Source: an uncultured virus (IMG/VR IMGVR_UViG_3300012352_000177) (lineage: Duplodnaviria > Heunggongvirae > Uroviricota > Caudoviricetes > Crassvirales). From it: 64,000 nt of DNA. Position numbers and translations under genes: made by a program. Of this stretch, positions 1 through 64,000 are shown one piece after another (position 1 is the stretch's first letter; each line of letters begins with the position of its first letter). The stretch lies in IMG/VR virus record IMGVR_UViG_3300012352_000177. The stretch is one strand, 5' to 3'. The notes under the pieces are model-generated. The model searched no databases and had not been told where the DNA came from. It saw nothing but the letters and a program-made list of their open reading frames with translations.

Positions 1-41
1 TGTTTTTCAAGTTGTTCTATAAATTGTTCTACTGCTGTCAT
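1..41 (-). CDS. partial small protein starting MTAVEQFIEQLEK (runs off window start)
   Basis: ATG at 41 follows the repeated junction TAAATCAGAATAAG-ATG; N-terminus shared with ORFs at 2090 and 63871. Confidence 0.55.
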   Translation of the reverse strand, partial: MTAVEQFIEQLEK

Positions 42-149
42 CTTATTCTGATTTATCATTTCTATTTAATATAAGGGGCAACTTTTACCCCTTTTGGTTT
101 ATTGATTTGTTATCAAACATTTGCCACTATTTTGATTTATTGGCGTTTG

Positions 150-884
150 TTAGTCTAATGTCTCGTCTATGTAGTGGTTGTCCACCTCATCTAACTGATC
201 GTCTCCAAAGAACGTGTCGTATACCTCTATCGCCTTCTCTACCTTTCTCTCTCCACCCAACAAGAAGTTCTCTGTTGGTCTGAAGATTCCTAACTGACCG
301 GTCAACTTATCAATCACAAAGAAGATTAACGGCTTGCCGAATAGCTGTTGGTATATGAACGCTTGGCTGTCGTAGTTGTACGCCTTCGCTGAGTACTTGA
401 ACTTATGTATGTCGCTCGTTGTCTTCAGGTCAATGATGACCTCATCTGTAATGATGTCAGCCTTTCCCTTCCACATACGACCCTTAATCTCACCGATTGC
501 GGGTTGCTCGTATACGTTTCCATCCTTGTATATCTCGTCAAAGAAGTAGATGTTTTGCTTCATGACCGATGCCAATCTCTCCATCTCCTCCTTCTCGCTC
601 TGTAGCATACAGAATGGGATGTTGTTCTCTGAGCAGTAGTCCTTGTACAGCTTAGTGTTACGCGTGGATGCCTCAACGAAGTGTGCAACAGTTGCCTTGT
701 CCGGCTCAATCAACAGCTGATGAAAGTACCTGCCCTCCGCGAAGTTCTTGTTGTCTTCTCTCGCTACCCCAAACTCCCTTGGGTTGCGTAGCAATACACC
801 GATGTCTGAGTTGGAGAGGTACTTCTTTCCCTCTCCACCATAGTACTCAGCATCGTTGCGTAGTAGGTCAATTACGCTATCCAT
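150..884 (-). CDS. RecE/exonuclease VIII-like PD-(D/E)XK nuclease
   Basis: LSNSDI, GRYFH, KGKAD...IIDLKTT and YDSQAFIY motifs; coupled to a Sak-like gene. Confidence 0.8.
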   Translation of the reverse strand: MDSVIDLLRNDAEYYGGEGKKYLSNSDIGVLLRNPREFGVAREDNKNFAEGRYFHQLLIEPDKATVAHFVEASTRNTKLYKDYCSENNIPFCMLQSEKEEMERLASVMKQNIYFFDEIYKDGNVYEQPAIGEIKGRMWKGKADIITDEVIIDLKTTSDIHKFKYSAKAYNYDSQAFIYQQLFGKPLIFFVIDKLTGQLGIFRPTENFLLGGERKVEKAIEVYDTFFGDDQLDEVDNHYIDETLD

Positions 885-1510
885 TACTTGAACATATTTT
901 GGATCATCTTGCGTGATAATGCAGACAGCAAGTACTTGCGACCAATCTGCTTAACTATCTTGTCCTCACCAAGTGCCTTGTTTGCGTTGATGTACTCCTC
1001 AATCTTTGAGAACTCAGGTGTGTTTGGCTTGAGGATTGGCAACTGCTCGTCCTCCCCCTCTTTCTTCTCACTATCAACCTTCTTCTTTGCCGTAGTAGGC
1101 TTAGCCGTTGTCATCTCAGGCATATCCTCACCTGTCCACAGCTGAAGTCCTAAGCCATGCATCGCAATTGCCTTAGCAGTCGAACGCTGAATAGCCTTGT
1201 TCACGTCCATAGACGTTAGCTTGTCTAACCTGATTGACTGATTACGGAAGTCCATGATTGGTAGGTAGTCAATGTTCTCCATGCCATCTACCTCAACGCC
1301 AACCTTCACGTATGCTGTGTTGCCGTCTGTAAAGTAGTTGAGGTTCGTGTCCGGATTCTCATAGATGTGGCGTTTAGCCTTTGGGTAATGCATCTTTAGT
1401 ATCTCCCATGCGTATGACCATGACATATACTTTACGTTACCCTTCGTCTCGATTTTTTTACTAATGTCTACAGACGACAAGACATCAAAAACTGATTTTT
1501 GCTTTTCCAT
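884..1510 (-). CDS. Sak/Rad52-like single-strand annealing protein (DUF1071-like)
   Basis: YMSWSYAW, LPIMDFRNQSI and DVNKAIQRSTAKAIAMHGLGLQLWTGED motifs. Confidence 0.85.
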   Translation of the reverse strand: MEKQKSVFDVLSSVDISKKIETKGNVKYMSWSYAWEILKMHYPKAKRHIYENPDTNLNYFTDGNTAYVKVGVEVDGMENIDYLPIMDFRNQSIRLDKLTSMDVNKAIQRSTAKAIAMHGLGLQLWTGEDMPEMTTAKPTTAKKKVDSEKKEGEDEQLPILKPNTPEFSKIEEYINANKALGEDKIVKQIGRKYLLSALSRKMIQNMFK

Positions 1511-1528
1511 TGTATTTGATTTGATTTG

Positions 1529-1825
1529 TTATATACTCCTGTTAATTGTGTTGATGATGGACGCGATGTCCTTGTCCTCGTTCATGCGTAGTTGCATCTG
1601 CTTAACGCCATGAATGATTGTAGTGTGAGAGACATCAACGCCCCTCTCCTTCAAGTACTCCTGAATAGTGTTGTACCTCATGTCCCTGAGTGCACACAGG
1701 AAGTATAGCAGTTGCCTTGCATCTACTATGCTACGCTTTTTTGTCTGTGCAAACATCTCATCCTCAGTTATATCGAATAACTTGGTGATGGACTTGATGA
1801 AGTGATTAAAGATTTGTTTTTTCAT
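1529..1825 (-). CDS. DnaA C-terminal (domain IV)-like HTH protein
   Basis: KKRSIVDARQLLYFL and SHTTIIHGVKQ; start placed at ATG 1825, downstream of the promoter box at 1838-1845. Confidence 0.75.
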   Translation of the reverse strand: MKKQIFNHFIKSITKLFDITEDEMFAQTKKRSIVDARQLLYFLCALRDMRYNTIQEYLKERGVDVSHTTIIHGVKQMQLRMNEDKDIASIINTINRSI

Positions 1826-1837
1826 TTGATTTATCCA

Positions 1838-1845
1838 CAAATATA
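1838..1845 (-). promoter_or_regulatory. Bacteroidota sigmaA -7 box TATATTTG
   Basis: TAnnTTTG in intergenic DNA upstream of the DnaA-C/Sak/RecE genes. Confidence 0.6.
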
Positions 1846-1868
1846 GTTAATAAGATTGTATTTTTAGT

Positions 1869-2090
1869 CTATTGTTGAAACTTTTTTTCGCACTGCAATA
1901 GATCATTGAACTTGACGTACACGAATCCATCGTGGACTATCTTCTTGCAGTTATCCCATGTGTATTGGTGTTGATACTCTACTTCCATTGCCTTAGCTTT
2001 TTCAAATTCATTGAACAGCAAACGCATTCTGTCAGCACCTAAACATTGTGTCATAACATCTTCTAAGTACTCTACTGCTGTCTGTTTCAT
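1869..2090 (-). CDS. small protein, TAVE family
   Basis: MKQTAVEYL...EKAKAME; overlaps the upstream ORF (ATGA). Confidence 0.65.
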   Translation of the reverse strand: MKQTAVEYLEDVMTQCLGADRMRLLFNEFEKAKAMEVEYQHQYTWDNCKKIVHDGFVYVKFNDLLQCEKKFQQ

Positions 2091-2233
2091 ATCTCTTTTA
2101 CTTTAAATTTACCCATCTCATAGCCTCCCTTGATTAGAAGCTCAGACTTCATCCAATAGGCTAATGATTTGTTGTTGAATGTCCACTCTTGGACTACTTT
2201 CTTTCCGATTTCGTAGCTTAGTTTATATCCCAT
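2087..2233 (-). CDS. hypothetical 48-aa protein
   Basis: manual translation MGYKLSYEIGKK...KVKEI; fills the gap in the operon. Confidence 0.6.
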   Translation of the reverse strand: MGYKLSYEIGKKVVQEWTFNNKSLAYWMKSELLIKGGYEMGKFKVKEI

Positions 2234-2244
2234 GACCTATGATT

Positions 2245-2649
2245 TTATCCGTATATAACCTCTCCTAATACCATGTACTGAAAGCATACATCTGATGACT
2301 CAGCATCTCCCTGCTCAGATATCTCGTTGAACAACGCCCAACCATCTCCGGTGTCAATCATCTTCTGTAGTCCATCCTTGATTGTATTGTAGTTGATTAC
2401 TCCAATTGGCGTGTCGTCCTCCATGTCCTCAATGTCATGCACCTCAATGCTCACATCGTGGTCAAGTATTGCCTTGGCAAATGCCATGGAGAAAAACGCC
2501 TCGTCTTCCCTGCTCACAGCATCACGTACCTTCTTATGATTATTTGGGTTGATGTAGTACCAATAGTTACTACCACCCTCTAACGCAGTAATGAATATGT
2601 TCTCTAATACATCCCTGCCTACCTCTTTCTCAATATTAAATTTCATCAT
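2245..2649 (-). CDS. hypothetical phage protein
   Basis: acidic 134 aa; TALEGGSNYW and terminal FQYMVLGEVIYG. Confidence 0.7.
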   Translation of the reverse strand: MMKFNIEKEVGRDVLENIFITALEGGSNYWYYINPNNHKKVRDAVSREDEAFFSMAFAKAILDHDVSIEVHDIEDMEDDTPIGVINYNTIKDGLQKMIDTGDGWALFNEISEQGDAESSDVCFQYMVLGEVIYG

Positions 2650-2885
2650 GATTTAAATTTTTCGTTATACAATATTAGGCTTATCTCTAACCAATCAGAT
2701 ATGATATCATCTGATGCATCAACACCCTTTAGTGCCTCAACTACGTGTGCTACACTCTGTAACGCACACTCATTTGCCATCTCAATGGTCATCATCTCTC
2801 CCCTCTTGGTCTCTAACTTGAGGAATGAGAAACGCAGGTCGAATACCCTACGCTCAATTGCTTTTTGTCGTTCAGTCTTTTCCAT
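2646..2885 (-). CDS. hypothetical protein
   Basis: co-oriented, overlaps neighbours. Confidence 0.6.
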   Translation of the reverse strand: MEKTERQKAIERRVFDLRFSFLKLETKRGEMMTIEMANECALQSVAHVVEALKGVDASDDIISDWLEISLILYNEKFKS

Positions 2886-3084: not shown

Positions 3085-3134
3085 TTGATTTGATTTAAGT
3101 TATGTGCGTTACCGAGTCGCACCCCTCGTTAATC

Positions 3135-3476: not shown

Positions 3477-3499
3477 AATAATTAGTTTAAATATTTACA

Positions 3500-4251: not shown

Positions 4252-4254
4252 ATC

Positions 4255-9103: not shown

Positions 9104-9305
9104 GCGACATACTTGCGACAAACATTTGCCAATATTTAAATTTATTGTCATATATACTAGATAAAATCGTTTTTATTCCGATTATCTTAATTGTTTTTAG
9201 CAACTTTCATGTATAATTAAGTGAATTTCCTTTACATTAAGTGTTTTTCACGTATAGTTTACCCTTATTTCTTTACATAAGTGTGGCATTGTGACAAATT
9301 TTTTA

Positions 9306-9313
9306 TATTTTTG
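9306..9313 (+). promoter_or_regulatory. sigmaA -7 box TATTTTTG for groEL
   Basis: 22 nt upstream of ATG 9336. Confidence 0.6.
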
Positions 9314-9335
9314 TGACGAATTAATTAAATCAAAT

Positions 9336-10946
9336 ATGCAAGGACAAGGTTATATGCCGAAGGATTTATTCTTCGAAGAGGAGGGAAGGAAGAAACTTAT
9401 CTCCGGAGTTAAGAAGATGGCTTCAGCTGTCAAGAGTACGTTGGGTCCCCATGGGAACACGGTACTAATCGAATCACCACACCACACTCACGGTATTACA
9501 GTCACTAAGGACGGGGTTACGGTAGCAAAGGCTATCGAGCTAATGGATCCTGTAGAGAACCTAGCGGTTAAGATGATGAAAGAGGCATCTGATCGTACTG
9601 CTACAACTGCAGGAGACGGGACAACTACGGCTATCGTGTTAACTGAGGCCATGGTATTGGGTGGTATGGAGCTAATCAAACCGGAGCACAACAGGACTCA
9701 GGTGTTACGACACATGACGGAGCTAAGTGACTTGATCGTTGATAGGCTTAAGAAGAAGAGCAAGAGAGTAACAACGGGTATGTTGGCTGACGTGGCTACG
9801 ATCAGTGCGAACAACGACCGTTCAATAGGTAAGATCATCGCAGACGTGTACAAGGACGTTGGAAAGACGGGCATTGTAACGGTGGAGAAGTCACAGTCTA
9901 CTAGCACATACGCAGAGACCACGGACGGACTACGTGTACAGAGGGGATACCTTTCGCCTATGTTCATTAATAATCAGGAGAAGGACGAGTGTATCTTAGA
10001 GGACACCCTTGTATTGGTAGCAGACATGGAGATCGGTAACATCCTACAGATAGAGTTGGTACTAAAGCCACTTATTCAGGAGGGGAAGAAGCTACTGATC
10101 ATCGCACCGTGCTCTACGAACATGACAAACACCTTAGCTGCGAACGTAGTTAAGAACGGACTAAAGATATGTGCTATCCAACCACCGAGCTTTGGGTACA
10201 AGCAGCACGAGCTGATGCAAGACATCGCGACAAGCGTGGGTGCTACCTACTTCAGCGAGAAGACGGGTGACGACTTGAGCCATATGACGTACGCTGACCT
10301 AGGTCACGCAGGAAAGGTGATCGTTGGACGAGACGAGACCATCATCATGACGAGTGATGTGAAGGCTGACCAAGAGCAGATCGATGAGAGAGTCGCTCAG
10401 TTGTGGAAGGCGAACGAGGCAGCTACCAAAAAGAACGACAAGGACTTCATATTGGAGAGAATTGCGTCATTAACAGGTGGAATTGGTGTAATATACGCAG
10501 GTGGTAACACAGACCTAGAGCAAAAGGAGCTATACGACAGGATTGATGACGCGGTATGCGCGGTACGTTCAGCCTTGGAGGAAGGAATTTTGCCGGGCGG
10601 TGGTAAGGCCTTGGGTGAGATCAACGTCTTTGAGGGCCTAGGCTTTGCAACTGACACGGATGAGAAGGTAATCGCGGCAAAGATCATGCAGTTGGCTGTA
10701 AATATGCCATTGATGCAGATCCTTAAGAACGCAGGCGTACCATTTGAGGACGTAGCGGACTGTATGGTAAACGATGGCTTTGGTTATAACGTGAAGACCG
10801 GTGAGAAGGGTGACCTAATCAAGATGGGAGTTATTGACCCGTTGAAGGTAACGAGAAGCGCACTTCAAAACGCGGTAAGTGTAGCGGTTACGATACTAAG
10901 TACTAACGCTATCGTCACGATGGCACGAACAATTGGAATAGAGTGA
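9336..10946 (+). CDS. groEL: chaperonin GroEL (Cpn60)
   Basis: TLGPHG, VTKDGVTVAK, AGDGTTTA, ALEEGILPGGG, GVIDPLKVTRSALQNAVSVA; start re-placed from GTG 9291 to ATG 9336; no GGM tail. Confidence 0.97.
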   Translation: MQGQGYMPKDLFFEEEGRKKLISGVKKMASAVKSTLGPHGNTVLIESPHHTHGITVTKDGVTVAKAIELMDPVENLAVKMMKEASDRTATTAGDGTTTAIVLTEAMVLGGMELIKPEHNRTQVLRHMTELSDLIVDRLKKKSKRVTTGMLADVATISANNDRSIGKIIADVYKDVGKTGIVTVEKSQSTSTYAETTDGLRVQRGYLSPMFINNQEKDECILEDTLVLVADMEIGNILQIELVLKPLIQEGKKLLIIAPCSTNMTNTLAANVVKNGLKICAIQPPSFGYKQHELMQDIATSVGATYFSEKTGDDLSHMTYADLGHAGKVIVGRDETIIMTSDVKADQEQIDERVAQLWKANEAATKKNDKDFILERIASLTGGIGVIYAGGNTDLEQKELYDRIDDAVCAVRSALEEGILPGGGKALGEINVFEGLGFATDTDEKVIAAKIMQLAVNMPLMQILKNAGVPFEDVADCMVNDGFGYNVKTGEKGDLIKMGVIDPLKVTRSALQNAVSVAVTILSTNAIVTMARTIGIE

Positions 10947-11188
10947 GACAGTTAATAGTTGATGCGTACCCGAACGAAACGTTTATGTTCGTATTGGGAT
11001 TCGATGAGGCAATAATCGGAGTGGAGCAGTTCACAATGAAGGTTGTTTACTCAGAGAAGAAGTGCATTGACATACTAAAGCAAAAGGGGTTAGACCCTAA
11101 GGTAGCTTTAGATCACTTTGAGTTTAATATAAAGTCGGCTTATATGGGAGATAAGACTCCCATATTTGTTGACGACATACTTCAATAA
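10943..11188 (+). CDS. conserved small phage protein
   Basis: GFDEAIIG...VVYS..KC...FEFNIKSAYMGDKTPIF; GTGA overlap with groEL. Confidence 0.75.
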   Translation: MRQLIVDAYPNETFMFVLGFDEAIIGVEQFTMKVVYSEKKCIDILKQKGLDPKVALDHFEFNIKSAYMGDKTPIFVDDILQ

Positions 11189-11189
11189 C

Positions 11190-11209
11190 ATGAAAGCAAT
11201 CGGAAAGAA
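11190..11209 (+). pseudogene. orphaned original 5' end of groES (MKAIGK)
   Basis: ATGAAAGCAATCGGAAAGAA versus groES ATGCGTGCAATCGGCAAAAA. Confidence 0.6.
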
Positions 11210-11230
11210 AAAAAATCTTATCTTTGCTAA

Positions 11231-11926
11231 ATGGAAAATAAAAAAGTAGTATATCTTCATAGGAAAAATACAGATAATTCTGTTTTTTATGTAGGAATGG
11301 GTAATTTGGCGCGTGCATATTCTAAACAAAGATCAAAATGGTGGAATAGCGTAGTAAGTAAACACGGATATACTATTGAAATATTCAAAGAAGGATTAAC
11401 ATTAGAAGAGGCTTGTCAATTAGAGATAGAACTTATTGAAAAATATGGTAGAATAGATTTAAATAATGGACAACTTATAAATCAAACAAAAGGAGGAATT
11501 ACTGTAGAGGCAATGTCTGAAAAAGGTTTAAATAAAAAAATTAAGTCTTTAAAATCTGTAGCAAGAACAGATGAATGGAAAGAAAAAATATCTAAAGCAC
11601 TAAAAGGAAAGGTAAAAAGCAAGGAATGGAGAGAGAAAATAGCTAAAACATTAACAGGAAGTAAGTTATCTGAAGCTACTAAAGAAAAAATGAGATTATC
11701 TAATAAATCAAAAATAGTAAGCGCAAGACCTATTTCTTGTTATGATTATTATTCATCTGAATTCATTGGTAATTTTCCTTCTTTAAGACAAGCTGCAAAA
11801 GATTTAGGTTGTTTGGAAACTTCTATAGCAAATAATATTGCTAAAAGAAGTAAAAAAGTAAATAGTAAAATATTAAACAAAAAATTAAAATTCAATTACA
11901 TATGCGTGCAATCGGCAAAAATATAG
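11231..11926 (+). mobile_element. free-standing GIY-YIG homing endonuclease with NUMOD3 and NUMOD1-like domains
   Basis: VYLH...FYVGMG...R...E...LINQTKGG; EWKEKISKALKG-type repeats; FPSLRQAAKDLG; much more AT-rich than flanks; own TATCTTTG at 11219-11226. Confidence 0.85.
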
Positions 11927-12159
11927 TAATCAAGACAGTAGACGAAGAGATCAAGACTGCATCAGGTCTATTACTGTCAGGAGAGGACTCCAATCAGATG
12001 CGTTACAAGAAGGCTATCGTTGCGGTAGCAGGAACGGACGTGAAAGCAATCGAGACAGGTGACTACATCTACTACGACAAGTCAAATAGCTTTACTATGG
12101 TCATCAACGATGAGCAGTATACAATCATTAACGAAAGGGATGTGGTAGTTGTGCTATAG
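11902..12159 (+). CDS. groES: co-chaperonin GroES
   Basis: KTASGLLL mobile loop, VAVAGTDV, GDYIYY and INERDVVVV. Confidence 0.9.
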   Translation: MRAIGKNIVIKTVDEEIKTASGLLLSGEDSNQMRYKKAIVAVAGTDVKAIETGDYIYYDKSNSFTMVINDEQYTIINERDVVVVL

Positions 12160-24945: not shown

Positions 24946-25172
24946 TGGAAATTAGAAAGATATCAATTGGTCCTGACTACAAAGGTGGTGCGATGCACTA
25001 CCTTGTAGGTCAGAGAGTATGCGGTGATTCGAATGAGATTCATTTGATCAGAAGAGACTCAATGACTAATTCTATCAAGATCTTTATCATTAACGAAAAG
25101 GAAGAGGTTGTGCTTTGGAAAGAGTTCAATCACACAATTCCTGTTGCAATTGAATATAATATAAATTTTTAA
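24945..25172 (+). CDS. conserved hypothetical phage protein
   Basis: IRKISIGPDYK..AMHY.VGQ...WKEFN. Confidence 0.75.
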   Translation: MEIRKISIGPDYKGGAMHYLVGQRVCGDSNEIHLIRRDSMTNSIKIFIINEKEEVVLWKEFNHTIPVAIEYNINF

Positions 25173-25735
25173 TGAAATCTCCATTCTACTTTATTGCAAA
25201 GCCAATGAAGGGGAAAAGATACGACAACACTAAGGAGATAGGCGGAATAGAGCTTATCACTAGTACATCAGAAGAGGACCACAAGTTCTCTAATCGTTTT
25301 GCTGAAGTTGTTGAAACTCCTTTAGGCTATGAGGGACCTATCACAGTTGGTGATACCCTAATTGTACATCACAATGTATTCAAGTTCTATAACGACATGA
25401 AGGGTCGTCAGAAAAGCGGTAAGAGCTTTTTCCGTGATGATATATTCTTTGTTGATACAGAGCAGTTCTATATGTATAAGCATGACGATAAGTGGTATGC
25501 TGTAGATAGATACTGTTTCGTTAGACCAATCCCTGCTATAGAGACTTACATCAAGAAGCCATTTACAGAGGAGCCACTTATGGGGCAGATGGTATACCCA
25601 AACGATTACTTAGTTAGTCAAGGCGTAAAGCCGGGAGACTACGTATGCTTTAAGCCGGACAGTGAGTACGAGTTTACAGTTGACGGAGAGAAGATGTATA
25701 GGATGTTTGATCATCAAATAACAATTATCTTATGA
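25172..25735 (+). CDS. tandem two-domain GroES-like protein
   Basis: domain 1 EIGGIEL...AEVVETP...ITVGDTLIV; domain 2 GVKPGDYVCF...EFTVDGEKMYRM. Confidence 0.6.
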   Translation: MKSPFYFIAKPMKGKRYDNTKEIGGIELITSTSEEDHKFSNRFAEVVETPLGYEGPITVGDTLIVHHNVFKFYNDMKGRQKSGKSFFRDDIFFVDTEQFYMYKHDDKWYAVDRYCFVRPIPAIETYIKKPFTEEPLMGQMVYPNDYLVSQGVKPGDYVCFKPDSEYEFTVDGEKMYRMFDHQITIIL

Positions 25736-26019: not shown

Positions 26020-28243
26020 ACTATACCGTATAGTTAAAGGTCACGTACCTTCTAAGGTAATGAGTCGTAAGAATAACGGCCGTACATGGGTATATGGGTA
26101 TAACGAGGAGTACGACATGGTTATCATCTCAAAGACCGGACAGGTTGGTGAGGTAATTAACATCTCAGGACTAAACATAGGCCTACCAATTGCACCTAAT
26201 GATTGCATCAAGAGAAGCGATACATCAAGAGAGCAGTATTGGGAGAGAAAGGACCTTCCTAAGGAGTTAAGTAGGATACAGTCTATATTCCATTGGAATG
26301 ATATGCCGTCTGAGTTTAAGAACAGATGGGTAGACTTTATTGAAAGAGAATTTGATTACAGGGACCAAGGTTGTTGGTTCATGAACAACGGAGTCCCAAC
26401 ATACATTACCGGCTCTCACTATATGTATTTACAATGGTCGAGTATTGATGTTGGGTACCCCGATTACCGAGAAGCAAATAGAATATTCTTTATATATTGG
26501 GAAGCAGCTCGTGCTGATAACAGATCATTTGGAATGGTCTACTTAAAGATCAGACGTTCAGGTTTCTCCTATATGTCATCATCTGAGTGTGTTAACATAG
26601 GGACTCTTGCAAAAGATGCAAGGGTTGGTATCCTATCTAAGACGGGAGCCGATGCTAAGAAGATGTTTACGGATAAGGTTGTTCCGATTAACAGCAGGCT
26701 TCCTTTCTTCTTTAGACCGATAATGGATGGTATGGATAAGCCTAAGACAGAGCTTGCCTACCGTATCCCGGCTGCAAAGATCACAAAGAAGAATATGCAT
26801 GACATTGATGACAATGAGATTCAAGGGTTAGATACAACGATAGATTGGAAGAACACAGAAGAGAACTCCTATGATGGTGAGAAGCTATTATTCTTAGCTC
26901 ATGATGAGAGTGCTAAGTGGGTTAAGCCAAATAATATCCTAAACAATTGGCGTGTAACAAAGACGTGTTTGCGTTTGGGATCAAAGATCATTGGTAAGTG
27001 TATGATGGGATCAACATCCAATGCGTTAAGCAAGGGTGGTGAGAACTACAAAAAGCTATACGAGGACTCTCGTGTAAGCACACGTAATGCCAATGGGCAG
27101 ACTAAGTCAGGACTATACTCACTATTCATTCCTATGGAATGGAATATGGAGGGATTCATAGACATCTATGGTATGCCTGTATTCAGAAAGCCAATGGATA
27201 AGGTTAGAGGTGTAGACGGTTTATGGATTACTAACGGAGCTATAGACTATTGGGAGGCAGAGGTTGAGTCGTTAAAGAACGACCCGGATGCACTCAATGA
27301 GTTCTACCGTCAGTTCCCTCGAACAGAGTCACACGCGTTTAGGGATGAGAGTAAGTCATCACTATTTAACCTGACAAAGATATACCAACAGATTGACTAC
27401 AATGATTCATTAATTGAACAGCATTACTTAACGAGAGGTTCTTTCCATTGGAAGGATGGCATTAAGGATACTAAGGTTATATGGACACCGGATCCAAGAG
27501 GCAGGTTCTTAGTTAGTTGGTTGCCTGCTCAAAGATTACAGAACAGGTATAGTGAGCGCGGAGGTGTAAGGTACCCTGCAAATGAGCACATTGGTTCGTT
27601 CGGATGTGACTCCTACGATATCTCAGCGGTAGTAGATGGACGTGGGTCAAACGGTGCACTGCATGGGATGACTAAGTTTCATATGGATGATGCTCCAACT
27701 AACGAGTTCTTCTTAGAGTACGTAGCTCGTCCACAGACAGCAGAGATATTCTTTGAGGAGGTATTGATGGCGTGTGTATTCTATGGTATGCCAATCTTAA
27801 TTGAGAACAATAAGCCAAGGCTATTGTATCACTTTAAGAATAGAGGCTATAGAGGCTTTTGTTTAAGCAGACCCGATAAGCACTCATCTAAGCTCTCTAA
27901 GACCGAAAGAGAACTCGGAGGCATACCTAACTCATCTGAGGACGTTAGACAGTCTCACGCGTCAGCTATTGAAGCCTACATAGAGAAGTATGTGGGATAT
28001 GATTCTACAGGAGAGTATAGAGATTCAGATCAGATTGGTAATATGCCATTCACAAGGACACTAAATGATTGGGCCCGATTTAACTACGATGACCGTACTA
28101 AATTCGATGCCTCTATTAGCTCAGGGTTGGCTATTATGGCCAATCAGAAGCACTTATATGTGCCGGAGAAAAAAGAATCAAAAATAAGCATTAAATTTGC
28201 AAGATATAGTAACAAAGGACACAATAGTGAATTGATTCAATGA
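25961..28243 (+). CDS. terL: terminase large subunit
   Basis: KIRRSGFS Walker A, LAHDE Walker B, MGST, GCDSYD and IENN nuclease motifs. Confidence 0.9.
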   Translation: MAHQKQIQNKDLQNVEQENKLYRIVKGHVPSKVMSRKNNGRTWVYGYNEEYDMVIISKTGQVGEVINISGLNIGLPIAPNDCIKRSDTSREQYWERKDLPKELSRIQSIFHWNDMPSEFKNRWVDFIEREFDYRDQGCWFMNNGVPTYITGSHYMYLQWSSIDVGYPDYREANRIFFIYWEAARADNRSFGMVYLKIRRSGFSYMSSSECVNIGTLAKDARVGILSKTGADAKKMFTDKVVPINSRLPFFFRPIMDGMDKPKTELAYRIPAAKITKKNMHDIDDNEIQGLDTTIDWKNTEENSYDGEKLLFLAHDESAKWVKPNNILNNWRVTKTCLRLGSKIIGKCMMGSTSNALSKGGENYKKLYEDSRVSTRNANGQTKSGLYSLFIPMEWNMEGFIDIYGMPVFRKPMDKVRGVDGLWITNGAIDYWEAEVESLKNDPDALNEFYRQFPRTESHAFRDESKSSLFNLTKIYQQIDYNDSLIEQHYLTRGSFHWKDGIKDTKVIWTPDPRGRFLVSWLPAQRLQNRYSERGGVRYPANEHIGSFGCDSYDISAVVDGRGSNGALHGMTKFHMDDAPTNEFFLEYVARPQTAEIFFEEVLMACVFYGMPILIENNKPRLLYHFKNRGYRGFCLSRPDKHSSKLSKTERELGGIPNSSEDVRQSHASAIEAYIEKYVGYDSTGEYRDSDQIGNMPFTRTLNDWARFNYDDRTKFDASISSGLAIMANQKHLYVPEKKESKISIKFARYSNKGHNSELIQ

Positions 28244-30678
28244 AAGAAGTACAAATAAACATATCGTCCACCGCGTTTCCGAGCCAATTCGTGCCGGACT
28301 CTGTAAAGGAAACATTTGAGTTCGGCCTTCAGATAGGTCAGGCTATTCAATATGAATGGTTCCGTAAGGATGGAAATCAGCAATGTAGATACTATGGTCA
28401 GTGGAGAGACTACCATAGACTAAGATTATACGCACGTGGCGAGCAGTCTGTTGCTAAGTATAAGAATGAGTTAGCTATTGATGGCGACCTATCTTATCTT
28501 AACTTAGATTGGACACCTGTACCTGTGCTTCCAAAGTTTGTTGACATCGTTGTAAACGGTATGTCCGATCGTATGTTTAAGGTTAAGGCGTATGCACAAG
28601 ATGCTATGTCCCAAGCTAAGAGAAGTAAGTATCAGGATCTAATTGAAGGTCAGATGGTTGCAAAACCTGTACTTGAGAAGATTCAAGAGAAGACAGGTAT
28701 TGATCCATTTATGATGGACCCGGCTCAATTGCCTCAGACAGATGAGGAGCTATCATTGTATATGCAGCTTAACTATAAGCCTGCAATCGAGATAGCTGAA
28801 GAGGAGGCAATCAATACAATCCTTGACGAGAACCATTATATGGATCTTAGAAAGAGAGTTGATTATGACATTACTGTATTAGGTATTGGTGTAATGAAAC
28901 ATCAGTTCCTTGCAGGTTCAGGTATTCAGTTAGACTACGTTGACCCGGCAAATATTGTATATAGCTATACAGAGGATCCTTACTTTAAGGATTGTTTCTA
29001 TTGGGGAGAGATTAAGACAATTCCAATTACAGAGCTATTAAAGATTGACCCTTCATTAACTAACGAACAATTACAAGAGATTTCTCAGTACAGTCAATCA
29101 TGGTATAACTACTTTAACGTAGCTCAGTACTATGAGAACAGTATGTTCTATAGAGACACTTGTACATTACTATACTTTAACTACAAGACCACTAAGAAGA
29201 TTGTCTATAAAAAGAAGATCCTTAAGAACGGTGGTACTCGAATGATTGAGAAAGATGATAACTTCAATCCACCTGTACAAATGATGGAGGAAGAAAAGTT
29301 CGAGAAAGTAGAAAAAACAATTGACGTTTGGTATGATGGTGTTATGGTTATGGGTACCAACATCATGTTGAAGTGGGAGATGTCCAAGAATATGGTACGT
29401 CCTAAGTCATCAAGCCAACACGCATTACCAAACTATATCGCTTGTGCACCACGTATGTACAAGGGAGTTGTTGAGTCATTAGTTCGTAGAATGATTCCAT
29501 TCGCTGACTTGATTCAGATCACTCACTTGAAACTACAACAGGTAATCGCAAGAACAGTTCCGGACGGTGTATTCATCGATGCAGATGGATTGAACGAGGT
29601 AGACTTAGGTACAGGTCAAGCTTACAACCCTGAGGATGCATTACGTCTATACTTCCAAACGGGTAGTGTAATTGGACGTAGCTACACTCAAGATGGTGAG
29701 TTCAATAACGCACGTGTTCCAATCCAACAGCTTACATCTAACTCAGGTGCAAGCAAGACGCAGATGCTTATCGCTAACTACAATCACTACCTAGGCATGA
29801 TTCGTGACGTTACAGGACTTAACGAAGCTCGTGATGGGTCTATGCCTGATCCTAACGCTTTAGTTGGTCTACAGAAGCTTGCTGCGCTTAACTCAAATAC
29901 AGCTACACGTCATATCTTAGACAGTAGCCTTTATATCTTTAGATCATTAGCAGAGGCTCTTACTTATAGAGTTGCTGACGTATTAGAGTACGCAGACTTT
30001 AAAGATGACTTTGCAAATAAGATTGGTAAGTATAACGTGTCATTATTAAATGACATTAAGGACCTATACATCTACGACTTTGGTATCTTTATTGAAGTAT
30101 CTCCGGATGAAGAGCAGAAAGCTCAACTTGAACAAAACATTCAGATGGCTTTATCTAAAGGAGATATTAACCTTGAAGACGCTATCGATATTCGTGAGAT
30201 TAAGAACTTGAAACTAGCAAACCAATTGCTTAAACTTAAGAGAACTAAGAAGCAGGAGAGAGAAGAGAAGATGGCTATGCAACAGCAAGCTATCACAGCT
30301 CAACAACAGCTTCAGTCTCAACAAATGGCAGCTCAGACAGCTATGCAAAGTATTCAAGCAGAGACTCAATCCAAGATTGCAATCAAACAAGCAGAGGTTG
30401 CATTTGATATTCAGAAGATGGAGAAAGAAGCTGAGTACAAGAAAATGCTTATGGCTGAAGAGTTTAACTATAGTATGCAGGTTCAAGGTATGACTCAAAG
30501 TCAAATTGACAAAAGAGAGAAGGAAAAAGAAGATGCTAAATCTAAAAGGATTAGTCAGCAAAATACAGAGCAATCTAAGTTAATTAATCAACGTAAAAAT
30601 AATTTACCTCCTCAAAGTTTTGAGTCAAACGAGGATTCCCTTGATGGCTTTGACATGGCAGAATTTGAGCCGAGATAA
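28240..30678 (+). CDS. portal protein
   Basis: 812 aa after terL; IRDVTGLNEARDG; Gln-rich C-terminal coiled coil. Confidence 0.85.
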   Translation: MKEVQINISSTAFPSQFVPDSVKETFEFGLQIGQAIQYEWFRKDGNQQCRYYGQWRDYHRLRLYARGEQSVAKYKNELAIDGDLSYLNLDWTPVPVLPKFVDIVVNGMSDRMFKVKAYAQDAMSQAKRSKYQDLIEGQMVAKPVLEKIQEKTGIDPFMMDPAQLPQTDEELSLYMQLNYKPAIEIAEEEAINTILDENHYMDLRKRVDYDITVLGIGVMKHQFLAGSGIQLDYVDPANIVYSYTEDPYFKDCFYWGEIKTIPITELLKIDPSLTNEQLQEISQYSQSWYNYFNVAQYYENSMFYRDTCTLLYFNYKTTKKIVYKKKILKNGGTRMIEKDDNFNPPVQMMEEEKFEKVEKTIDVWYDGVMVMGTNIMLKWEMSKNMVRPKSSSQHALPNYIACAPRMYKGVVESLVRRMIPFADLIQITHLKLQQVIARTVPDGVFIDADGLNEVDLGTGQAYNPEDALRLYFQTGSVIGRSYTQDGEFNNARVPIQQLTSNSGASKTQMLIANYNHYLGMIRDVTGLNEARDGSMPDPNALVGLQKLAALNSNTATRHILDSSLYIFRSLAEALTYRVADVLEYADFKDDFANKIGKYNVSLLNDIKDLYIYDFGIFIEVSPDEEQKAQLEQNIQMALSKGDINLEDAIDIREIKNLKLANQLLKLKRTKKQEREEKMAMQQQAITAQQQLQSQQMAAQTAMQSIQAETQSKIAIKQAEVAFDIQKMEKEAEYKKMLMAEEFNYSMQVQGMTQSQIDKREKEKEDAKSKRISQQNTEQSKLINQRKNNLPPQSFESNEDSLDGFDMAEFEPR

Positions 30679-41844: not shown

Positions 41845-42642
41845 ATGGCAGAGTATACATTATCATATAGCGAAAGGGTACAGGGGTGGACATCGTTCTA
41901 CTCCTTTATCCCTGATTGGATGATTGGGATGAACAATTATTTCTATACGTTCAAGGGTGGTAACCTATACCGTCATAACGTAAATAGTGTTAGGAATAAC
42001 TTCTATGGTAATCAGTATAGCTCAACTATACAGACTGTATTTAACGATGTTCCATTACAGAACAAGTTATTTAAGACATTAAACATAGAGGGTGATGACG
42101 CTTGGGAAGCAACTATGGAGACTGACATTCAGACTACAGGGTTCATCGAGTACCCATGGTTTGAGAAGAAGGAGGGGTCTTGGTTCGCATTTGTCCGTAA
42201 CTCAGGAACAGTTCCTGCACTTACAGATGAGTACGCATTGCGTTCACTTAATGGTGTAGGACGAAGCGCATCAATTACGGGTCCTGCAGGTGCATTAGTG
42301 ATTAACTTCTCAATTGCACCATTGGTTGCCATTGGAAGTATTGCAAGTATTGGTGACTACCTTTACTATGCACTACCACCATATACCACTCCTGTGCTAT
42401 GCGGTGAGATTACAGACATCATTCAAGACTATCCGGCAGGTGATAACTACTTTGTAGTAGATACCACTGCAGGTGGGGCTATTCCGCCTATACAAGATCC
42501 GTACTTCCTATACATTAAAAACTCAGTTGCTGAGTCGCATGGTGTATTAGGACACTACTGTGTTGTTGACATAGAGAATACCAATACGTCAAAAGTTGAA
42601 CTTTTTGCTATTGAGTCTGAGGTAATGAAGAGTTATCCTTAA
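41845..42642 (+). CDS. C-terminal module of the stabilisation protein as a separate gene
   Basis: TLSYSERVQGWTSFYSFIP, KLFKTL, FEKKEG and VELFAI. Confidence 0.65.
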   Translation: MAEYTLSYSERVQGWTSFYSFIPDWMIGMNNYFYTFKGGNLYRHNVNSVRNNFYGNQYSSTIQTVFNDVPLQNKLFKTLNIEGDDAWEATMETDIQTTGFIEYPWFEKKEGSWFAFVRNSGTVPALTDEYALRSLNGVGRSASITGPAGALVINFSIAPLVAIGSIASIGDYLYYALPPYTTPVLCGEITDIIQDYPAGDNYFVVDTTAGGAIPPIQDPYFLYIKNSVAESHGVLGHYCVVDIENTNTSKVELFAIESEVMKSYP

Positions 42643-55128: not shown

Positions 55129-55150
55129 AGTAGTGCCGAAAGGCACTACT
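55129..55150. terminator. hairpin between convergent arms
   Basis: AGTAGTGCC-GAAA-GGCACTACT perfect 9-bp stem; no U tract. Confidence 0.55.
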
Positions 55151-55559
55151 TAAACCTTATGTACTTAAACTCTTTTTGTTTGTCGTAGTAAGCCATTAGC
55201 TCATTATCGTTAGTGGCTCCTTCTCTGCTAGGTCTACCACCCAACCGGATGGTTCCGTATATAGAGAATATCTTACCATAGATGATACCATCTTCGCATG
55301 ACCATATAACAACGGGGTTTAGTCTTTTATCAGATAACTTGTGTAGTTTACGTATGGCAATAGGGAGAGGATACGCGTCTCTCATGGTACGTATCCTTCC
55401 CTTTACCTCGACATAAGCAATTAGTTTCTTGTCCTTATCAAAGACCTTATAGTCTACATCGTGTGGACCTAACTTCTCGTATGATCCTCCGAATATTGCA
55501 ACAAATGTTTCTATGGCTTTTTTCTCTCTTCGTCTGTCTTCTTCTGATTCAAAAGTCAT
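55146..55559 (-). CDS. PD-(D/E)XK endonuclease-like protein
   Basis: DVDY...YVEVKGR. Confidence 0.7.
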   Translation of the reverse strand: MTFESEEDRRREKKAIETFVAIFGGSYEKLGPHDVDYKVFDKDKKLIAYVEVKGRIRTMRDAYPLPIAIRKLHKLSDKRLNPVVIWSCEDGIIYGKIFSIYGTIRLGGRPSREGATNDNELMAYYDKQKEFKYIRFK

Positions 55560-55737
55560 CGTGCTCTATAGATTTTAAAAGCATACGTAGCTCGGAGATA
55601 ACGGAGATGATATCCTTGTCGACCTTGTGAAACTCACGGTCAACTAATCTTTCATAGATATCAGCTAAGGACTTGTGACATATGTCAATTGTGAAGGCTA
55701 TACGCCTTGCTCTGTCCATTTCATTATTCCCCTCCAT
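55549..55737 (-). CDS. hypothetical protein
   Basis: IYERLVDRE; in operon. Confidence 0.6.
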   Translation of the reverse strand: MEGNNEMDRARRIAFTIDICHKSLADIYERLVDREFHKVDKDIISVISELRMLLKSIEHDDF

Positions 55738-55741
55738 ACGC

Positions 55742-56284
55742 TTATCTCATTACAAGACTATTAAAAAAATTATTCAACTTAGATTCCACAAAATCCTCTT
55801 GTCCGACAGGTGTCCTATCGTTGATCAACCAAAGTATTTTTTGTAGTCTCTCGTACTTTAGTTTGTCACTTAAGTACTTTTGATTCTCCAAAGATAGCTT
55901 TTCTATTTGTTTATGCAACACCATTGAGTTATTTATTATCTCAATCTCTTGACTTTCTATCAGCTTAGGTTGTATTTCTATAAACCTTTCTTTCAGGTAT
56001 ATATACGTTTCGCGGAACTCTGTGTCACTACTAAATAACCAATCAAAGTTTTTCATGTAGTGAATAATAGTTGAATGATCTTTGCCAATTCTTCTACCAA
56101 TAGACTTAAATGAATAGTTGTGTTCACGTGCAATCTTTGCATATATAATACGGGCATCGACAAGCTTTCTTTTCCTTGAGTCCCCAAATATATCTATATC
56201 TAGTTCACCCTCTACTACGATGCGAATTGCATCTAATTCATCCTTTGGTTTCCTCACCTCTAAATACTTCTGTTCTGATTCCAT
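55742..56284 (-). CDS. DnaA C-terminal-like HTH protein with coiled-coil tail
   Basis: SRKRKLVDARIIY...SFKSIGRRIGKDHSTIIH. Confidence 0.75.
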   Translation of the reverse strand: MESEQKYLEVRKPKDELDAIRIVVEGELDIDIFGDSRKRKLVDARIIYAKIAREHNYSFKSIGRRIGKDHSTIIHYMKNFDWLFSSDTEFRETYIYLKERFIEIQPKLIESQEIEIINNSMVLHKQIEKLSLENQKYLSDKLKYERLQKILWLINDRTPVGQEDFVESKLNNFFNSLVMR

Positions 56285-56492
56285 GTTTATTTAATTCTTT
56301 AATTCTAAATTCTTGTAACTTACTTAACTTTCCATCCGGACGCTTGACCTCGCTAAACAGCACACCTGTGTTAGGTGGTATAGCGATGAGGTCCGGGATT
56401 CCATTCTTATTGGTCTTGATGAGCTTAATGACGTAGTATCCTTGAGCTTCAAGTTCCTTGATACGTTTGGCTTGTATCTGCTGTTCGGTCAT
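56238..56492 (-). CDS. VRR-NUC nuclease
   Basis: TEQQIQ...GIPDL...SEVKRPDGKLSKLQ. Confidence 0.85.
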   Translation of the reverse strand: MTEQQIQAKRIKELEAQGYYVIKLIKTNKNGIPDLIAIPPNTGVLFSEVKRPDGKLSKLQEFRIKELNKHGIRTEVFRGEETKG

Positions 56493-57015: not shown

Positions 57016-57272
57016 AATTCGTCAAATAGTTTTTGGTGTCTTTCAATTTTTTCTTTAAGCATCTCACAGCGTTGCTCTGAAACTTTGATAATATCTTCAA
57101 TAAGGATGCGTACATATCCTACATCAGAAAACTCAACTGATATAGTTCCATCTTCTCTACATGACTTTCGTTTTAACTTTTCTATTTGCTCTTTTTCAAG
57201 ATCAAGTGCCTTCCAATTACTTGAGATGCAATCTTGCAAATCATTTGCTCTAAATAATAATTCCTTTGTCAT
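57012..57272 (-). CDS. hypothetical coiled-coil protein
   Basis: ATGA-coupled. Confidence 0.6.
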   Translation of the reverse strand: MTKELLFRANDLQDCISSNWKALDLEKEQIEKLKRKSCREDGTISVEFSDVGYVRILIEDIIKVSEQRCEMLKEKIERHQKLFDEL

Positions 57273-58699
57273 AATAATTTTTTAAAATGTGTAACTGTAA
57301 AATCTTTCTTTGCCGATACGGCTTTGTATATCTCCTTCTCGATGCCTCCCTTGGAGAACAACCAATACACTTTATTGTACTTGCGTTCCTTAGTGGTCAT
57401 CCTATCGCGTGACTGCCAATAGCTTGTCGCACTGAAGTCGATGTTGTAGTATACCAAGTAGTCAGCGTTCTTCAACGATATTCCCTCACGTCCGGATACA
57501 ATCTGCAGAGCTATCACCTGATAGTCCTCGTTGTCAAACTTATCAAGCTCAGTAGTAAGCTTATCACCAAACACTTGCTTGAGTGCATTAAGCTCTTCCT
57601 TGAACTTGTAGAAGACTCCAATCTTATATTCTGAAAACTTCCATTTTATGCACTCTGCCTTGGTCAGGTCAAGTATCATAGAGTTTCCACTCTCGAACTT
57701 AATGGTACCACTGCATAGTTGGTGTACCTTCTGCATGAGCTTCACCGGTGTGTCAGCTAAGATTAGCTCTTCCTTCCCCTCGATCAGCAGATCTTTTTTA
57801 AGCTTCTTGATCATTGCGTAGGTCGAAGGCTTCAGGCTAACGTACAAAATCTCTTCTTCTACTTCACTATCAAAGCCTGCTTCTTTCTGCGTGTAGCTTA
57901 TCATGTAAGGCTTCATCGCTTCAAGGATGGAAGGCTTTCCCTCAGAGTAGTCTCTGATGCGTAGGCTGTTGATCATTCGCTCCTTTACGTTCACGTGTTC
58001 GTTTGCAAACTTGTAGAACGTTGGGCATCCTCTGAACGGGTTACCGGGAATTGCGCTTACTTGGTGGTACAGCTGTGAGTATGACTCGGGGGTTGGTGTA
58101 CCCGAAAGTAAGATGACGTATGGTTTATTAACTTTGATGAACTCAGCCACAATCTTAGCTCGGTTACTTGCCTTTGGAAAGGCACCCATACCATGAGCCT
58201 CATCTAGGATGATTACATCGTACCCGTAATTACCAATGGTGTGTAAGCTCTCGTAGTTGATCACGGTTATCGCATAGCTTGGGTTAAGAAGGTCGTAGTC
58301 TCTTTGAATAGTTGAGATAGCTTTCTTCTTAGTAACAAATAAAACCTGATTAGGCTTCAATAACTCGCATATGCCGAGACTTGTGAGTGTCTTCCCTGTC
58401 CTTACCTCCATTGCTAAATAAACGAAGCGAGAGACGTTTAAAATGTCATATGCTTTTGCGATGATTTCTTTTTGATAATCTCTAAACTCTATCTTCATAC
58501 TCTTATAATGTTCTATGCTATTCTTAATTTGTTTTACCTTGTCTTCCATGTTACGATACATAGGCACCCTCATGGTTACAACATTCTTTCCTCTTCCGAT
58601 CTTTACTTCCTTGATCTTATTTATCGCCTTGAGCATTGCCTCAAGTTGACTAATCATCATCTTAGGTGTGTATCCGGATGGACCCTGTATGATCTCCAT
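57269..58699 (-). CDS. SF2 (SNF2-like) helicase
   Basis: FRDYQ, EVRTGKT, ILDEAH, LSGTPTP, GREGISL and QSRDR. Confidence 0.9.
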   Translation of the reverse strand: MEIIQGPSGYTPKMMISQLEAMLKAINKIKEVKIGRGKNVVTMRVPMYRNMEDKVKQIKNSIEHYKSMKIEFRDYQKEIIAKAYDILNVSRFVYLAMEVRTGKTLTSLGICELLKPNQVLFVTKKKAISTIQRDYDLLNPSYAITVINYESLHTIGNYGYDVIILDEAHGMGAFPKASNRAKIVAEFIKVNKPYVILLSGTPTPESYSQLYHQVSAIPGNPFRGCPTFYKFANEHVNVKERMINSLRIRDYSEGKPSILEAMKPYMISYTQKEAGFDSEVEEEILYVSLKPSTYAMIKKLKKDLLIEGKEELILADTPVKLMQKVHQLCSGTIKFESGNSMILDLTKAECIKWKFSEYKIGVFYKFKEELNALKQVFGDKLTTELDKFDNEDYQVIALQIVSGREGISLKNADYLVYYNIDFSATSYWQSRDRMTTKERKYNKVYWLFSKGGIEKEIYKAVSAKKDFTVTHFKKLL

Positions 58700-62933: not shown

Positions 62934-62938
62934 CTTAA

Positions 62939-63092
62939 TGTCGATTTAATGTCGTTTTCAAATTATAAATCCCTTTATTAATAAGGGTTATGTCGATTCT
63001 GTCGATTTTTCTTTCCTAATGTATAAGAATAAAAAATAATTAATAGTAAAAATATATATAGAGTATAGAGAGATATATTTTTTGTTGTCATC
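62939..63092. repeat. TGTCGA iteron cluster plus AT-rich tract (origin-like, copy B)
   Basis: TGTCG at 62939, 62950, 62991, 63000; directly upstream of the primase gene. Confidence 0.6.
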
Positions 63093-63107
63093 TACGATTT
63101 GTTGGTT

Positions 63108-63133
63108 AAAAAAGGGGAGCGTTAACTCCCCTT
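63108..63133 (-). terminator. intrinsic terminator after SSB
   Basis: AAGGGGAG/CTCCCCTT stem plus T run on the minus strand. Confidence 0.7.
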
Positions 63134-63154
63134 GACTAACTGATAATCAATAGG

Positions 63155-63448
63155 TTAGAATGGTAAGTCCTCCTCATCATCCTCGTCTACACTTGGCTTA
63201 GAACTGACAGCCGGTGCAGTTTTCTCGACATCCTTGTTCTTAGGCTCGTATGTGTCCAACTCAAGGTATGCGTTACCACTTCGTCCGTACTTAATGTCTA
63301 AGTTAACCCAACCATTCTTCTCGTTGTTACGTAAGAATGCGATCGCCTCGTCTATCTTAACTGATAGCCTACCGATTACAAAGTCAGGTGCATCCTCTCT
63401 TCGCTTGAACATAAACCCATCTGCGAATACTTTTTCTTTTTGTTCCAT
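63155..63448 (-). CDS. single-stranded DNA-binding protein-like
   Basis: APDFVIGRL, GWVNLDI; acidic tail DEDDEEDLPF; next to primase. Confidence 0.7.
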   Translation of the reverse strand: MEQKEKVFADGFMFKRREDAPDFVIGRLSVKIDEAIAFLRNNEKNGWVNLDIKYGRSGNAYLELDTYEPKNKDVEKTAPAVSSKPSVDEDDEEDLPF

Positions 63449-63470
63449 TTTATATTTGATTTAATTGTTA

Positions 63471-63575
63471 CTAAAATACTCCACGCCATACGTGGATGAC
63501 TAACTCTATCATTCCATAGCAGAAAACTCCAAGGATGAATAGTAATAATATAATTGCCTTTGTTTTCTCTGTCAT
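63471..63575 (-). CDS. small membrane peptide (34 aa)
   Basis: manual translation MTEKTKAIILLLFILGVFCYG; starts at the repeated junction. Confidence 0.5.
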   Translation of the reverse strand: MTEKTKAIILLLFILGVFCYGMIELVIHVWRGVF

Positions 63576-63576
63576 C

Positions 63577-63693
63577 TTATTCTGATTTAATTGTTAATAA
63601 CTTTTCTGCTAGTTCTAATACATATAATAAAAATGTATCTTTCGTATTAACTAATGCTACATTAATTACTACAATGCTGTTTATATCTCTCAT
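63577..63693 (-). CDS. 38-aa peptide ending IKSE
   Basis: manual translation; ends in the repeated junction. Confidence 0.4.
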   Translation of the reverse strand: MRDINSIVVINVALVNTKDTFLLYVLELAEKLLTIKSE

Positions 63694-63694
63694 A

Positions 63695-63871
63695 TTACTT
63701 TTGTTTATTTAATTGTTGTTTTACTTCCTCCCAATAATCTTCTGAAAACCTATCATTTTCAAATTTTTTACTTGTATACAAAACACATTTCTGTATCTCA
63801 TATACTACCTTTATCGCAAGTTCTTTACCAAACTTATTTATCAAATCTGTTGCTCTCTCTACTGCTGTCAT
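63695..63871 (-). CDS. 58-aa protein MTAVERA...YWEEVKQ
   Basis: manual translation; starts at the repeated junction. Confidence 0.6.
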   Translation of the reverse strand: MTAVERATDLINKFGKELAIKVVYEIQKCVLYTSKKFENDRFSEDYWEEVKQQLNKQK

Positions 63872-63872
63872 C

Positions 63873-64000
63873 TTATTCTGATTTAAAGGGTTTTAAAAAA
63901 TTGTTTATTTGGTCAAATAACCATCCTGTTAAGTAAGCTTCAGGCTCATCATTATGAAGATCGATCTTAGCATTTATACCTAAGAAGATGTAGTTCTTAA
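63873..64000 (-). CDS. partial protein ending FKSE (5' end outside window)
   Basis: reads ...HNDEPEAYLTGWLFDQINNFLKPFKSE*. Confidence 0.55.
   Translation of the reverse strand, partial: KNYIFLGINAKIDLHNDEPEAYLTGWLFDQINNFLKPFKSE

Follow-up and report, generated by a model that had tools for sequence, protein, structure and literature searches.

A small putative PD-(D/E)XK nuclease gene tracks genome-wide absence of CCAG in an uncultured phage and its relatives

Introduction

Endonucleases II and IV of phage T4 degrade host DNA, and T4 itself is protected by hydroxymethylcytosine; EndoII is a GIY-YIG enzyme. Chloroviruses direct short-site restriction and nicking endonucleases such as Nt.CviPII against the DNA of their algal hosts; these enzymes have cognate methyltransferases as partners, and the sites remain in the viral genomes. 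EcoRII, MvaI and PspGI are Type II enzymes for CCWGG, and CCWGG and GATC are the sites of Dcm and Dam. Here we analyze a stretch of 64,000 nucleotides from an uncultured virus (IMG/VR record IMGVR_UViG_3300012352_000177), which we call the window. It lacks the word CCAG (CTGG on the opposite strand) and carries, as the last gene of its replication arm, a small open reading frame (ORF), 55146-55559, with the features of a PD-(D/E)XK nuclease, referred to as allele A. Based on comparisons among related sequences, we put at roughly 75% the probability that ORF 55146-55559 is a site-specific phage nuclease that works without a methylase and is self-protected by the genome-wide loss of its own site.

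Results

The original prediction, made by eye, was that CCAG/CTGG is absent from the whole window although a couple of hundred sites would be expected. Exact counting confirms that the absence is real: CCAG and CTGG both occur zero times on both strands over all 64,000 bases. A maximal-order Markov model built from trimer and dimer counts predicts 285.6 sites (z -20.8), an order-1 model predicts 316, and shuffling synonymous codons 100 times over 60,774 coding bases, with proteins and codon usage preserved, gives 264±13 with a lowest value of 223. CCAG is the sole tetramer at zero; next come CTAG, GATC and GGCC at 77/179, 166/267 and 29/46 (here and below, paired counts are observed/expected). 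Neighboring words are retained, with 444 copies of CAGG/CCTG, 96 of CCGG and 101 of CCCG/CGGG, and the trimer CAG is at a normal level (1688/1773). Given that CAGG/CCTG and CCGG are kept, the missing word is the asymmetric CCAG and not CCWGG or CCNG. Indeed, all CCAGN 5-mers are missing, which rules out depletion limited to CCWGG or to a longer motif; Dcm/EcoRII-type avoidance, in which only CCAGG/CCTGG is gone, is the pattern of a relative (G003) and not of the window. The persistence of GATC, CCGG and GGCC and a gap wider than CCWGG had both been anticipated.

The reported bending of codon choice around the word is equally sharp when counted. None of the 173 Trp codons follows a codon ending in C, with TAC and TAT used 462 and 464 times overall. 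Before a codon starting with G, Pro is encoded by CCT 121 times, CCG 59 times, CCC 14 times and never by CCA, a codon used 222 times; in codon pairs of the form xC?-GG, the third base is A in 212 cases, G in 45, C in 29 and T in none.

We collected 80 relatives through the portal protein, irrespective of the nuclease, and 80 loci through the nuclease itself. The portal-selected loci are bimodal: 38 of 80 lie at or below 0.12 of the expected number of CCAG sites and 42 lie at 0.40-1.24. Among the nuclease-selected loci, 74 of 80 have zero CCAG and all are at or below 0.13; GATC, CATG, CTAG and GGCC vary freely among them. Across 80 metagenome loci with an intact gene there are 10 CCAG sites where 3315 are expected, and 75 of these loci are at zero. 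The nuclease sits in a slot between the giant virion protein gene and a block encoding a DnaA-type helix-turn-helix (HTH) protein and a VRR-NUC nuclease (Table 1), and this block is common to CCAG-free and CCAG-normal relatives. Three CCAG-normal, near-complete relatives (G002, G004 and G005, of six searched) lack allele A, and their slot is occupied by an unrelated gene, allele C; none of 80 allele C loci has CCAG at or below 0.13.

The association extends to viruses that have little else in common with the window. Distant homologues of allele A (26-42% identity where full length) were found in 36 viral loci that share 0-2 genes with the window, and the 8 loci examined have other terminases, portals, capsids and helicases. 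CCAG is at zero in 25 of the 36, with a total of 96 sites against 969 expected. Nine of the 11 exceptions retain a single sub-word, CCAGG or CCAGA, nearly alone: CCAGG accounts for 42 of the 44 residual sites in L468-472 and for 34 of the 38 in L493-495, and all 11 residual sites of L480 are CCAGA. Such retention of a single sub-word is as expected if specificity has changed. The residual CCAG sites of MW202828 are also nearly all CCAGG, and in this record as in L468-L472 and L493-L495 this may mean that the site is narrower or that CCWGG methylation protects the remaining copies. In a sub-branch of the distant homologues (L473-L485 and L501), the trimer CAG is halved, with ACAG, GCAG and CAGC rare and TCAG normal, possibly a sign of relaxed specificity. 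Some distant carriers (L482, L489 and L499) encode methyltransferases.

The family splits into intact forms and decayed forms that lack K53 and the loop G107-E120 together, and the decayed forms serve as natural knock-outs. We collapsed 143 loci to 98 distinct carriers and scored them by a relaxed rule, set after the data had been seen, under which 82 are intact and 16 broken, having lost the catalytic Lys or the conserved loop; three carriers (L095, L109 and L146) are near-intact, and an earlier, stricter rule (79 intact, 19 broken) gives the same picture. Intact carriers hold 40 CCAG sites against 6173 expected, with 73 at zero and none above 0.13, and broken carriers hold 503 against 1564. 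All 10 carriers above 0.2 of expectation are broken. On a helicase tree built with FastTree, in which 87 of the 94 rows have both traits and from whose count MW202828 and gene-less rows were excluded, breakage requires at least 10 changes and return of CCAG 6, and in none of 71 intact rows has CCAG come back. Six independent pairs on well-supported branches comprise four that change in the same direction, none in the opposite direction and two without difference (p 0.125). In sister pairs, CCAG stands at 0/115 in L153 and 93/140 in L247, and at 0/69 in L134 and 43/89 in L214; GATC stays at 0-1 in both pairs while CCAG comes back, so general avoidance was not relaxed there.

Decayed allele A (P0124-P0173) often retains its open frame at full length, with the core residues conserved, and may have a non-catalytic role. 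In P0136, decayed allele A is joined to the C-terminal portion of a sequence resembling allele B.

Cultured phages carry the family as well. In INPHARED, tblastn with the window nuclease has MW202828 as its sole match, and the Pseudomonas members of Pfam family PF24579 were reached via the distant homologue L467; tblastn with P0199 and with allele C found no match there, and a scan with P0186 found no relative. The PF24579 core is present in 154 INPHARED Pseudomonas phage records. Three carriers, EPA1, Kassivere and phiPsa374 (50 kb each), are devoid of CCWGG (0/86, 0/82 and 0/72) and have normal CCAG. In the P. aeruginosa phages KPP10, LUZ24, LUZ19 and PB1 (44-50 kb each), in which a search of the whole records found no PF24579 member (positive control 3/3), CCWGG stands at 348/301, 202/192, 313/288 and 208/191. 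Of the arguments against a host cause, this contrast between phages that share a host is the strongest; its basis is three carriers and four controls chosen by hand. In PaoP5, the gene PaoP5_097 (L509:601-1023, KU297675.1) is annotated from 55852; the 140-aa match starts at 55738, 38 codons longer.

The original prediction had named two branches, a host defense and a phage nuclease. A host system that reads CCAG, whether Type IIG or III restriction, a nicking system or the phosphorothioate-based Ssp/BREX-4, could leave the phage gene riding with host range and decaying after a host shift. This would account for genomes that are CCAG-free without an intact gene (G022, G008, G023 and G007) and for the many relatives without GATC, CATG, CTAG, GGCC or CGCG, palindromes to which no neighboring nuclease cluster could be matched; asymmetric four-base phosphorothioate motifs, NCTC and GAGC/GCTC, do exist in gut bacteria, according to the part of bioRxiv 2024.06.03.597175 considered here. 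A host cause fails, however, to explain why differences among phages that infect a single host species coincide exactly with the gene, and it leaves unexplained why decay of the catalytic residues and loop goes with the return of CCAG while other avoided words stay at zero. In the portion of PMC6286503 that we used, phages were not found to avoid Type I or III sites systematically, and no CCAG motif was found in the literature by title or abstract, a search with REBASE and methylome supplements outside its range. A candidate host, a Flavobacterium single-amplified genome, does not avoid the word either. We consider a host defense improbable, since same-host phages differ by gene; the branch naming ORF 55146-55559 as a phage nuclease has strong comparative support, the loss of CCAG across relatives tracking the integrity of allele A.

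In bacteria, a pattern-limited scan of 185,579 species genomes returned 3 matches to the nuclease gene, two on contigs shorter than 4 kb and the third in an assembly in which phage portals occur too, and the allele A sequence is unrelated to the PADLOC models. Judged by this distribution, the gene is viral and not a cellular defense. In one of these assemblies, the Flavobacterium genome, eight chromosomal stretches (160 kb) have CCAG at 776/816, and the word is missing from the 3.6-kb contig that carries the gene; targets are therefore plentiful in a likely host, about one per 200 bases.

Allele A scores 29.1 bits against PF24579 (cut-off 25), its nearest Atlas clusters belong to PF24579 (0.99) and are 100% viral, and its putative catalytic residues D36, E51 and K53 are invariant in 23 distant rows as well as in the close homologues; the loop GGRxxRxGxxNDxE is likewise invariant. 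The AlphaFold2 model (predicted local distance difference test, pLDDT, 88) has the PD-(D/E)XK core fold: its best VIA match is Hjc (Z 10.2, root-mean-square deviation 2.5, 104 aligned), followed by D212 (Z 7.8), NhoI (7.2), I-Ssp6803I (6.9) and DpnI (6.4). Foldseek gave no match at E<=0.001, and enzymes of the MvaI/BcnI type are not among the best 50 fold matches listed.

The Hjc match, together with the position of the gene in the replication arm, is what a structure-specific resolvase would predict, and either such an enzyme or a site-binding protein acting in replication or packaging could make stray CCAG copies harmful; alternatively, the gap might be a by-product of mutation or repair. 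We find these ideas very hard to sustain. A functional site requires at least one copy, and the window has none. Many relatives do without allele A, have another gene in its place or carry it in decayed form, and the VRR-NUC nuclease beside it is conserved. Covariation with one word points to sequence reading rather than Hjc-type structure-specific cleavage, and a mutational bias would not give an exact zero with all neighboring words normal.

The presence of NhoI and DpnI among the fold neighbors raises another prospect, that the same protein cuts only modified CCAG, in the manner of DpnI, NhoI or LpnPI: the host would methylate the word, the nuclease would attack the marked host DNA, and the phage would avoid the word and so escape marking by host methylases. 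Such an enzyme predicts the same covariation of gene and word, and CCWGG and GATC are Dcm and Dam sites. But it would need the same methylase in all hosts, since word and enzyme go together in unrelated phages with different groups of hosts. Moreover, the CCAGG-only variants are better explained by blocking through CCWGG methylation, or by a narrower site, than by a requirement for methylation, and Z values of about 7 are within the range of common fold arrangements. We therefore judge it unlikely, and favor a nuclease that reads unmodified CCAG.

Protection by the phage's own methylation finds no candidate gene: no methyltransferase or base-modification gene is present among 78 ORFs searched with PHROGs or 57 searched with Pfam, as had been expected from the letters alone, with about 100 bases of the genome possibly falling outside the window.

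To pair small genes with missing words, we clustered 2349 ORFs of 129 units. Allele B coincided with missing CATG in 15 of 15 cases, and a family D was confined to phages with decayed allele A (6 of 6). CATG is at zero in 16 of 17 allele B loci and in OX376640 (0/129), also where CCAG occurs; allele B has no Pfam match. GATC is at zero in all 8 allele D loci and in all 6 cultured phages with D, homologues of which occur in 41 INPHARED records, mostly pelagiphages; HTVC010P, which has no allele D match, has 131 GATC sites. All 8 close allele D carriers also hold decayed allele A, which suggests that D replaces decayed A. CTAG is at zero in 78 of 80 allele C loci, and CTAG avoidance is common anyway, according to the part of PMC4687349 considered. 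The allele C model (pLDDT 92.5) matches only NTF2/cystatin-like arrangements (Z<=7.2), with no nuclease-like fold match. These pairings of B with CATG, D with GATC and C with CTAG are correlations. For allele D, GATC is preferred to CCWGG as the tracked word: GATC is zero in every carrier, and CCWGG is not (11 copies in L214, 10 in C72C1). We do not claim homology of A and B, given that the link through hidden Markov models was circular, B being already in alignment A2.

Other words are also scarce. The 32-kb phage G026 (L198, L278-L279) has CAGG/CCTG at 0/124 and CATG at 0/104 with CCAG in excess, making CAGG a second missing asymmetric tetramer. In the window, RCATGY is absent where about 21 are expected, GACGTC/GACGCC where about 10 are expected, and CGCCG is at 0/12; CGACG (3/20), AGCCC (7/29) and GAGCTC (3/14) are rare. 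These shortages probably reflect ordinary host restriction. Several relatives likewise lack CGACG and CGCCG.

The window is a nearly complete genome, judged by a 95%-identical nuclease on a contig of 64,114 bp (L083). It encodes terminase, portal and virion proteins, a 3335-aa giant protein, GroEL/ES, Sak, an exonuclease, an SF2 helicase and a primase (Table 1); a scan of the ORFs revealed no DNA or RNA polymerase. Among annotated records, MW202828 is the closest (portal 78%). Next come phages of Maribacter, Flavobacterium (elemo) and Cellulophaga, none above 50%, a group that we take to be the Pachyviridae; given these relatives, we infer a Bacteroidota host. ORF 41845-42642 has a crAss muzzle C-terminal domain, the region 9291-12159 has a NUMOD-type homing endonuclease (11231-11926) between groEL and groES, and a second GroES-like gene lies at 25172-25735.

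Table 1 Features of the window and of the alternative alleles in related loci
Feature	Position	Strand	Description
Window	1..64000	.	Nearly complete podophage genome, CCAG/CTGG-free on both strands
Allele A, PD-(D/E)XK nuclease	55146..55559	-	137 aa, predicted CCAG cutter; Pfam PF24579 PDDEXK_14
Putative catalytic motif D36...E51-x-K53	55401..55454	-	Invariant in 36 close homologues
Loop G107-E120 (GGRxxRxGxxNDxE)	55200..55241	-	Kept to ~30% identity; candidate site-reading element
Portal gene	28240..30678	+	Used to gather relatives irrespective of nuclease
Giant virion protein gene, 3335 aa	45120..55127	+	One edge of slot for allele A, B or C in relatives
Small ORF, DnaA-type HTH protein, VRR-NUC nuclease	55549..56492	-	Other edge of slot
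SF2 helicase gene	57269..58699	-	Tree marker
Allele B	L180:13735-14136 (also L183-L199, L384)		Small protein, D...ExK motif
Allele C	L165:5202-5585 (also L297-L376)		106-134-aa protein, no known family, same slot as A
Allele D	L169:3447-3809 (also L289-L296, L377-L382)		Second small D...ExK protein

Discussion

We propose that allele A would be made along with the replication genes and would recognize unmodified CCAG/CTGG, so that DNA in the cell bearing the word would be nicked or cut. A nick rather than a double-strand break is suggested by one active center acting on an asymmetric site. The likeliest target would be the host chromosome, for shut-off and nucleotide supply, to which we assign somewhat over half of the weight of this proposal; the DNA of a rival phage or mobile element, with a little under a third of it, is the other, and the two are compatible. 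With no methylase, each new CCAG in the phage genome would be purged by selection, and once the gene decays CCAG would drift back. Cleavage, its target and the form of the cut are what we infer from the word's absence, the family, the fold and the covariation, all of which the analysis shows.

Several points weigh against this proposal. The fold is closest to that of a Holliday-junction resolvase, a structure-specific rather than a site-specific enzyme, and the case for cleavage is comparative rather than biochemical. The broken set was enriched on purpose, the decayed-form alignment having been used to fetch loci; 6 of the 16 broken carriers are still at or below 0.13; the independent-pairs test is not significant alone (p 0.125); and the counts for metagenome loci, distant-homologue loci and allele C and D loci are not de-duplicated. 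Allele A is missing from G022 (complete, with terminal repeats; CCAG 0/310), G008 (78% complete, slot covered; 0/247) and G023 (93% complete; 9/292), and it is broken in G007 (0/274). Host pressure on CCAG is possible in some lineages, given that these four genomes lack many words. A plausible explanation is lag after recent loss or replacement, since allele B occupies the slot in G022, G008 and G023 and G024, the sister of G023, still has allele A.

More broadly, we lean slightly toward the view that lytic phages widely carry restriction without modification, in the form of interchangeable site-specific nucleases of 105-145 aa whose sites are purged from their own genomes. With similar reserve, these nucleases would act against the DNA of hosts and rivals, A reading CCAG or CCWGG, B reading CATG, D reading GATC and C, a protein of no recognized nuclease fold, reading CTAG. 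If so, phages would have brought on themselves much of the avoidance now credited to host restriction, and the words that their genomes lack would foretell the specificities of a large reservoir of new miniature restriction or nicking enzymes. Even for allele A alone, absence of the site would replace a chemical mark as the rule by which a viral nuclease tells self from non-self, and missing words need not report host restriction, which bears on host prediction and on phage-host arms races. An uncharacterized Pfam family would gain a testable substrate in cultured phages of therapy research, and very small enzymes with asymmetric four-base sites are possible tools. A search judged by titles and abstract openings, with most subscription papers, REBASE and supplements outside its range, listed no account of a PF24579 substrate or of such self-avoidance.

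Among described families, allele A is most like PF24579, 'Phage putative PDDEXK endonuclease', sharing its ExK motif and GGR...D-x-E loop. The core members, from Pakpunavirus, Otagovirus and P. putida phages (EPA1_97 and PaoP5_097 among them), are annotated as hypothetical proteins with no substrate given; they track CCWGG, whereas the branch of the window tracks CCAG. Ped1 of PaoP5 is also a small Pakpunavirus DNase damaging host DNA, according to the part of PMC13728149 considered here. We rejected the identification of Ped1 with the PF24579 member: Ped1 is PaoP5_157, has 74 aa and is described in that part as not PD-(D/E)XK, and the PF24579 gene is PaoP5_097. The part of PMC5563952 considered makes no mention of host DNA cutting.

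In site avoidance driven by Type II restriction-modification, as treated in PMC6286503, a short word is wholly lost from a double-stranded DNA phage genome, as in the window; here, in contrast, an asymmetric word is lost, and it tracks a phage gene rather than a known host enzyme. Nor is allele A a Type II restriction-modification system, having no cognate methyltransferase and not being cell-encoded. It has the PD-(D/E)XK fold in common with Hjc and with the Type II CCWGG enzymes, and a related word with the latter, but unlike these it has 137 aa, no methylase partner and a viral-only distribution. Like T4 EndoII (mentioned also in PMC13728149) and EndoIV, allele A would attack host DNA and spare the phage; no modification gene was found in the window, and the proposed protection is absence of the site. 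Like the chlorovirus enzymes it would be virus-encoded and directed at a short site in host DNA, but those have cognate methyltransferases and retained sites, whereas allele A has no methylase and its site is gone. The arrangement may be a new form of viral DNA-attacking nuclease, resembling the T4 and chlorovirus enzymes minus the protecting modification.

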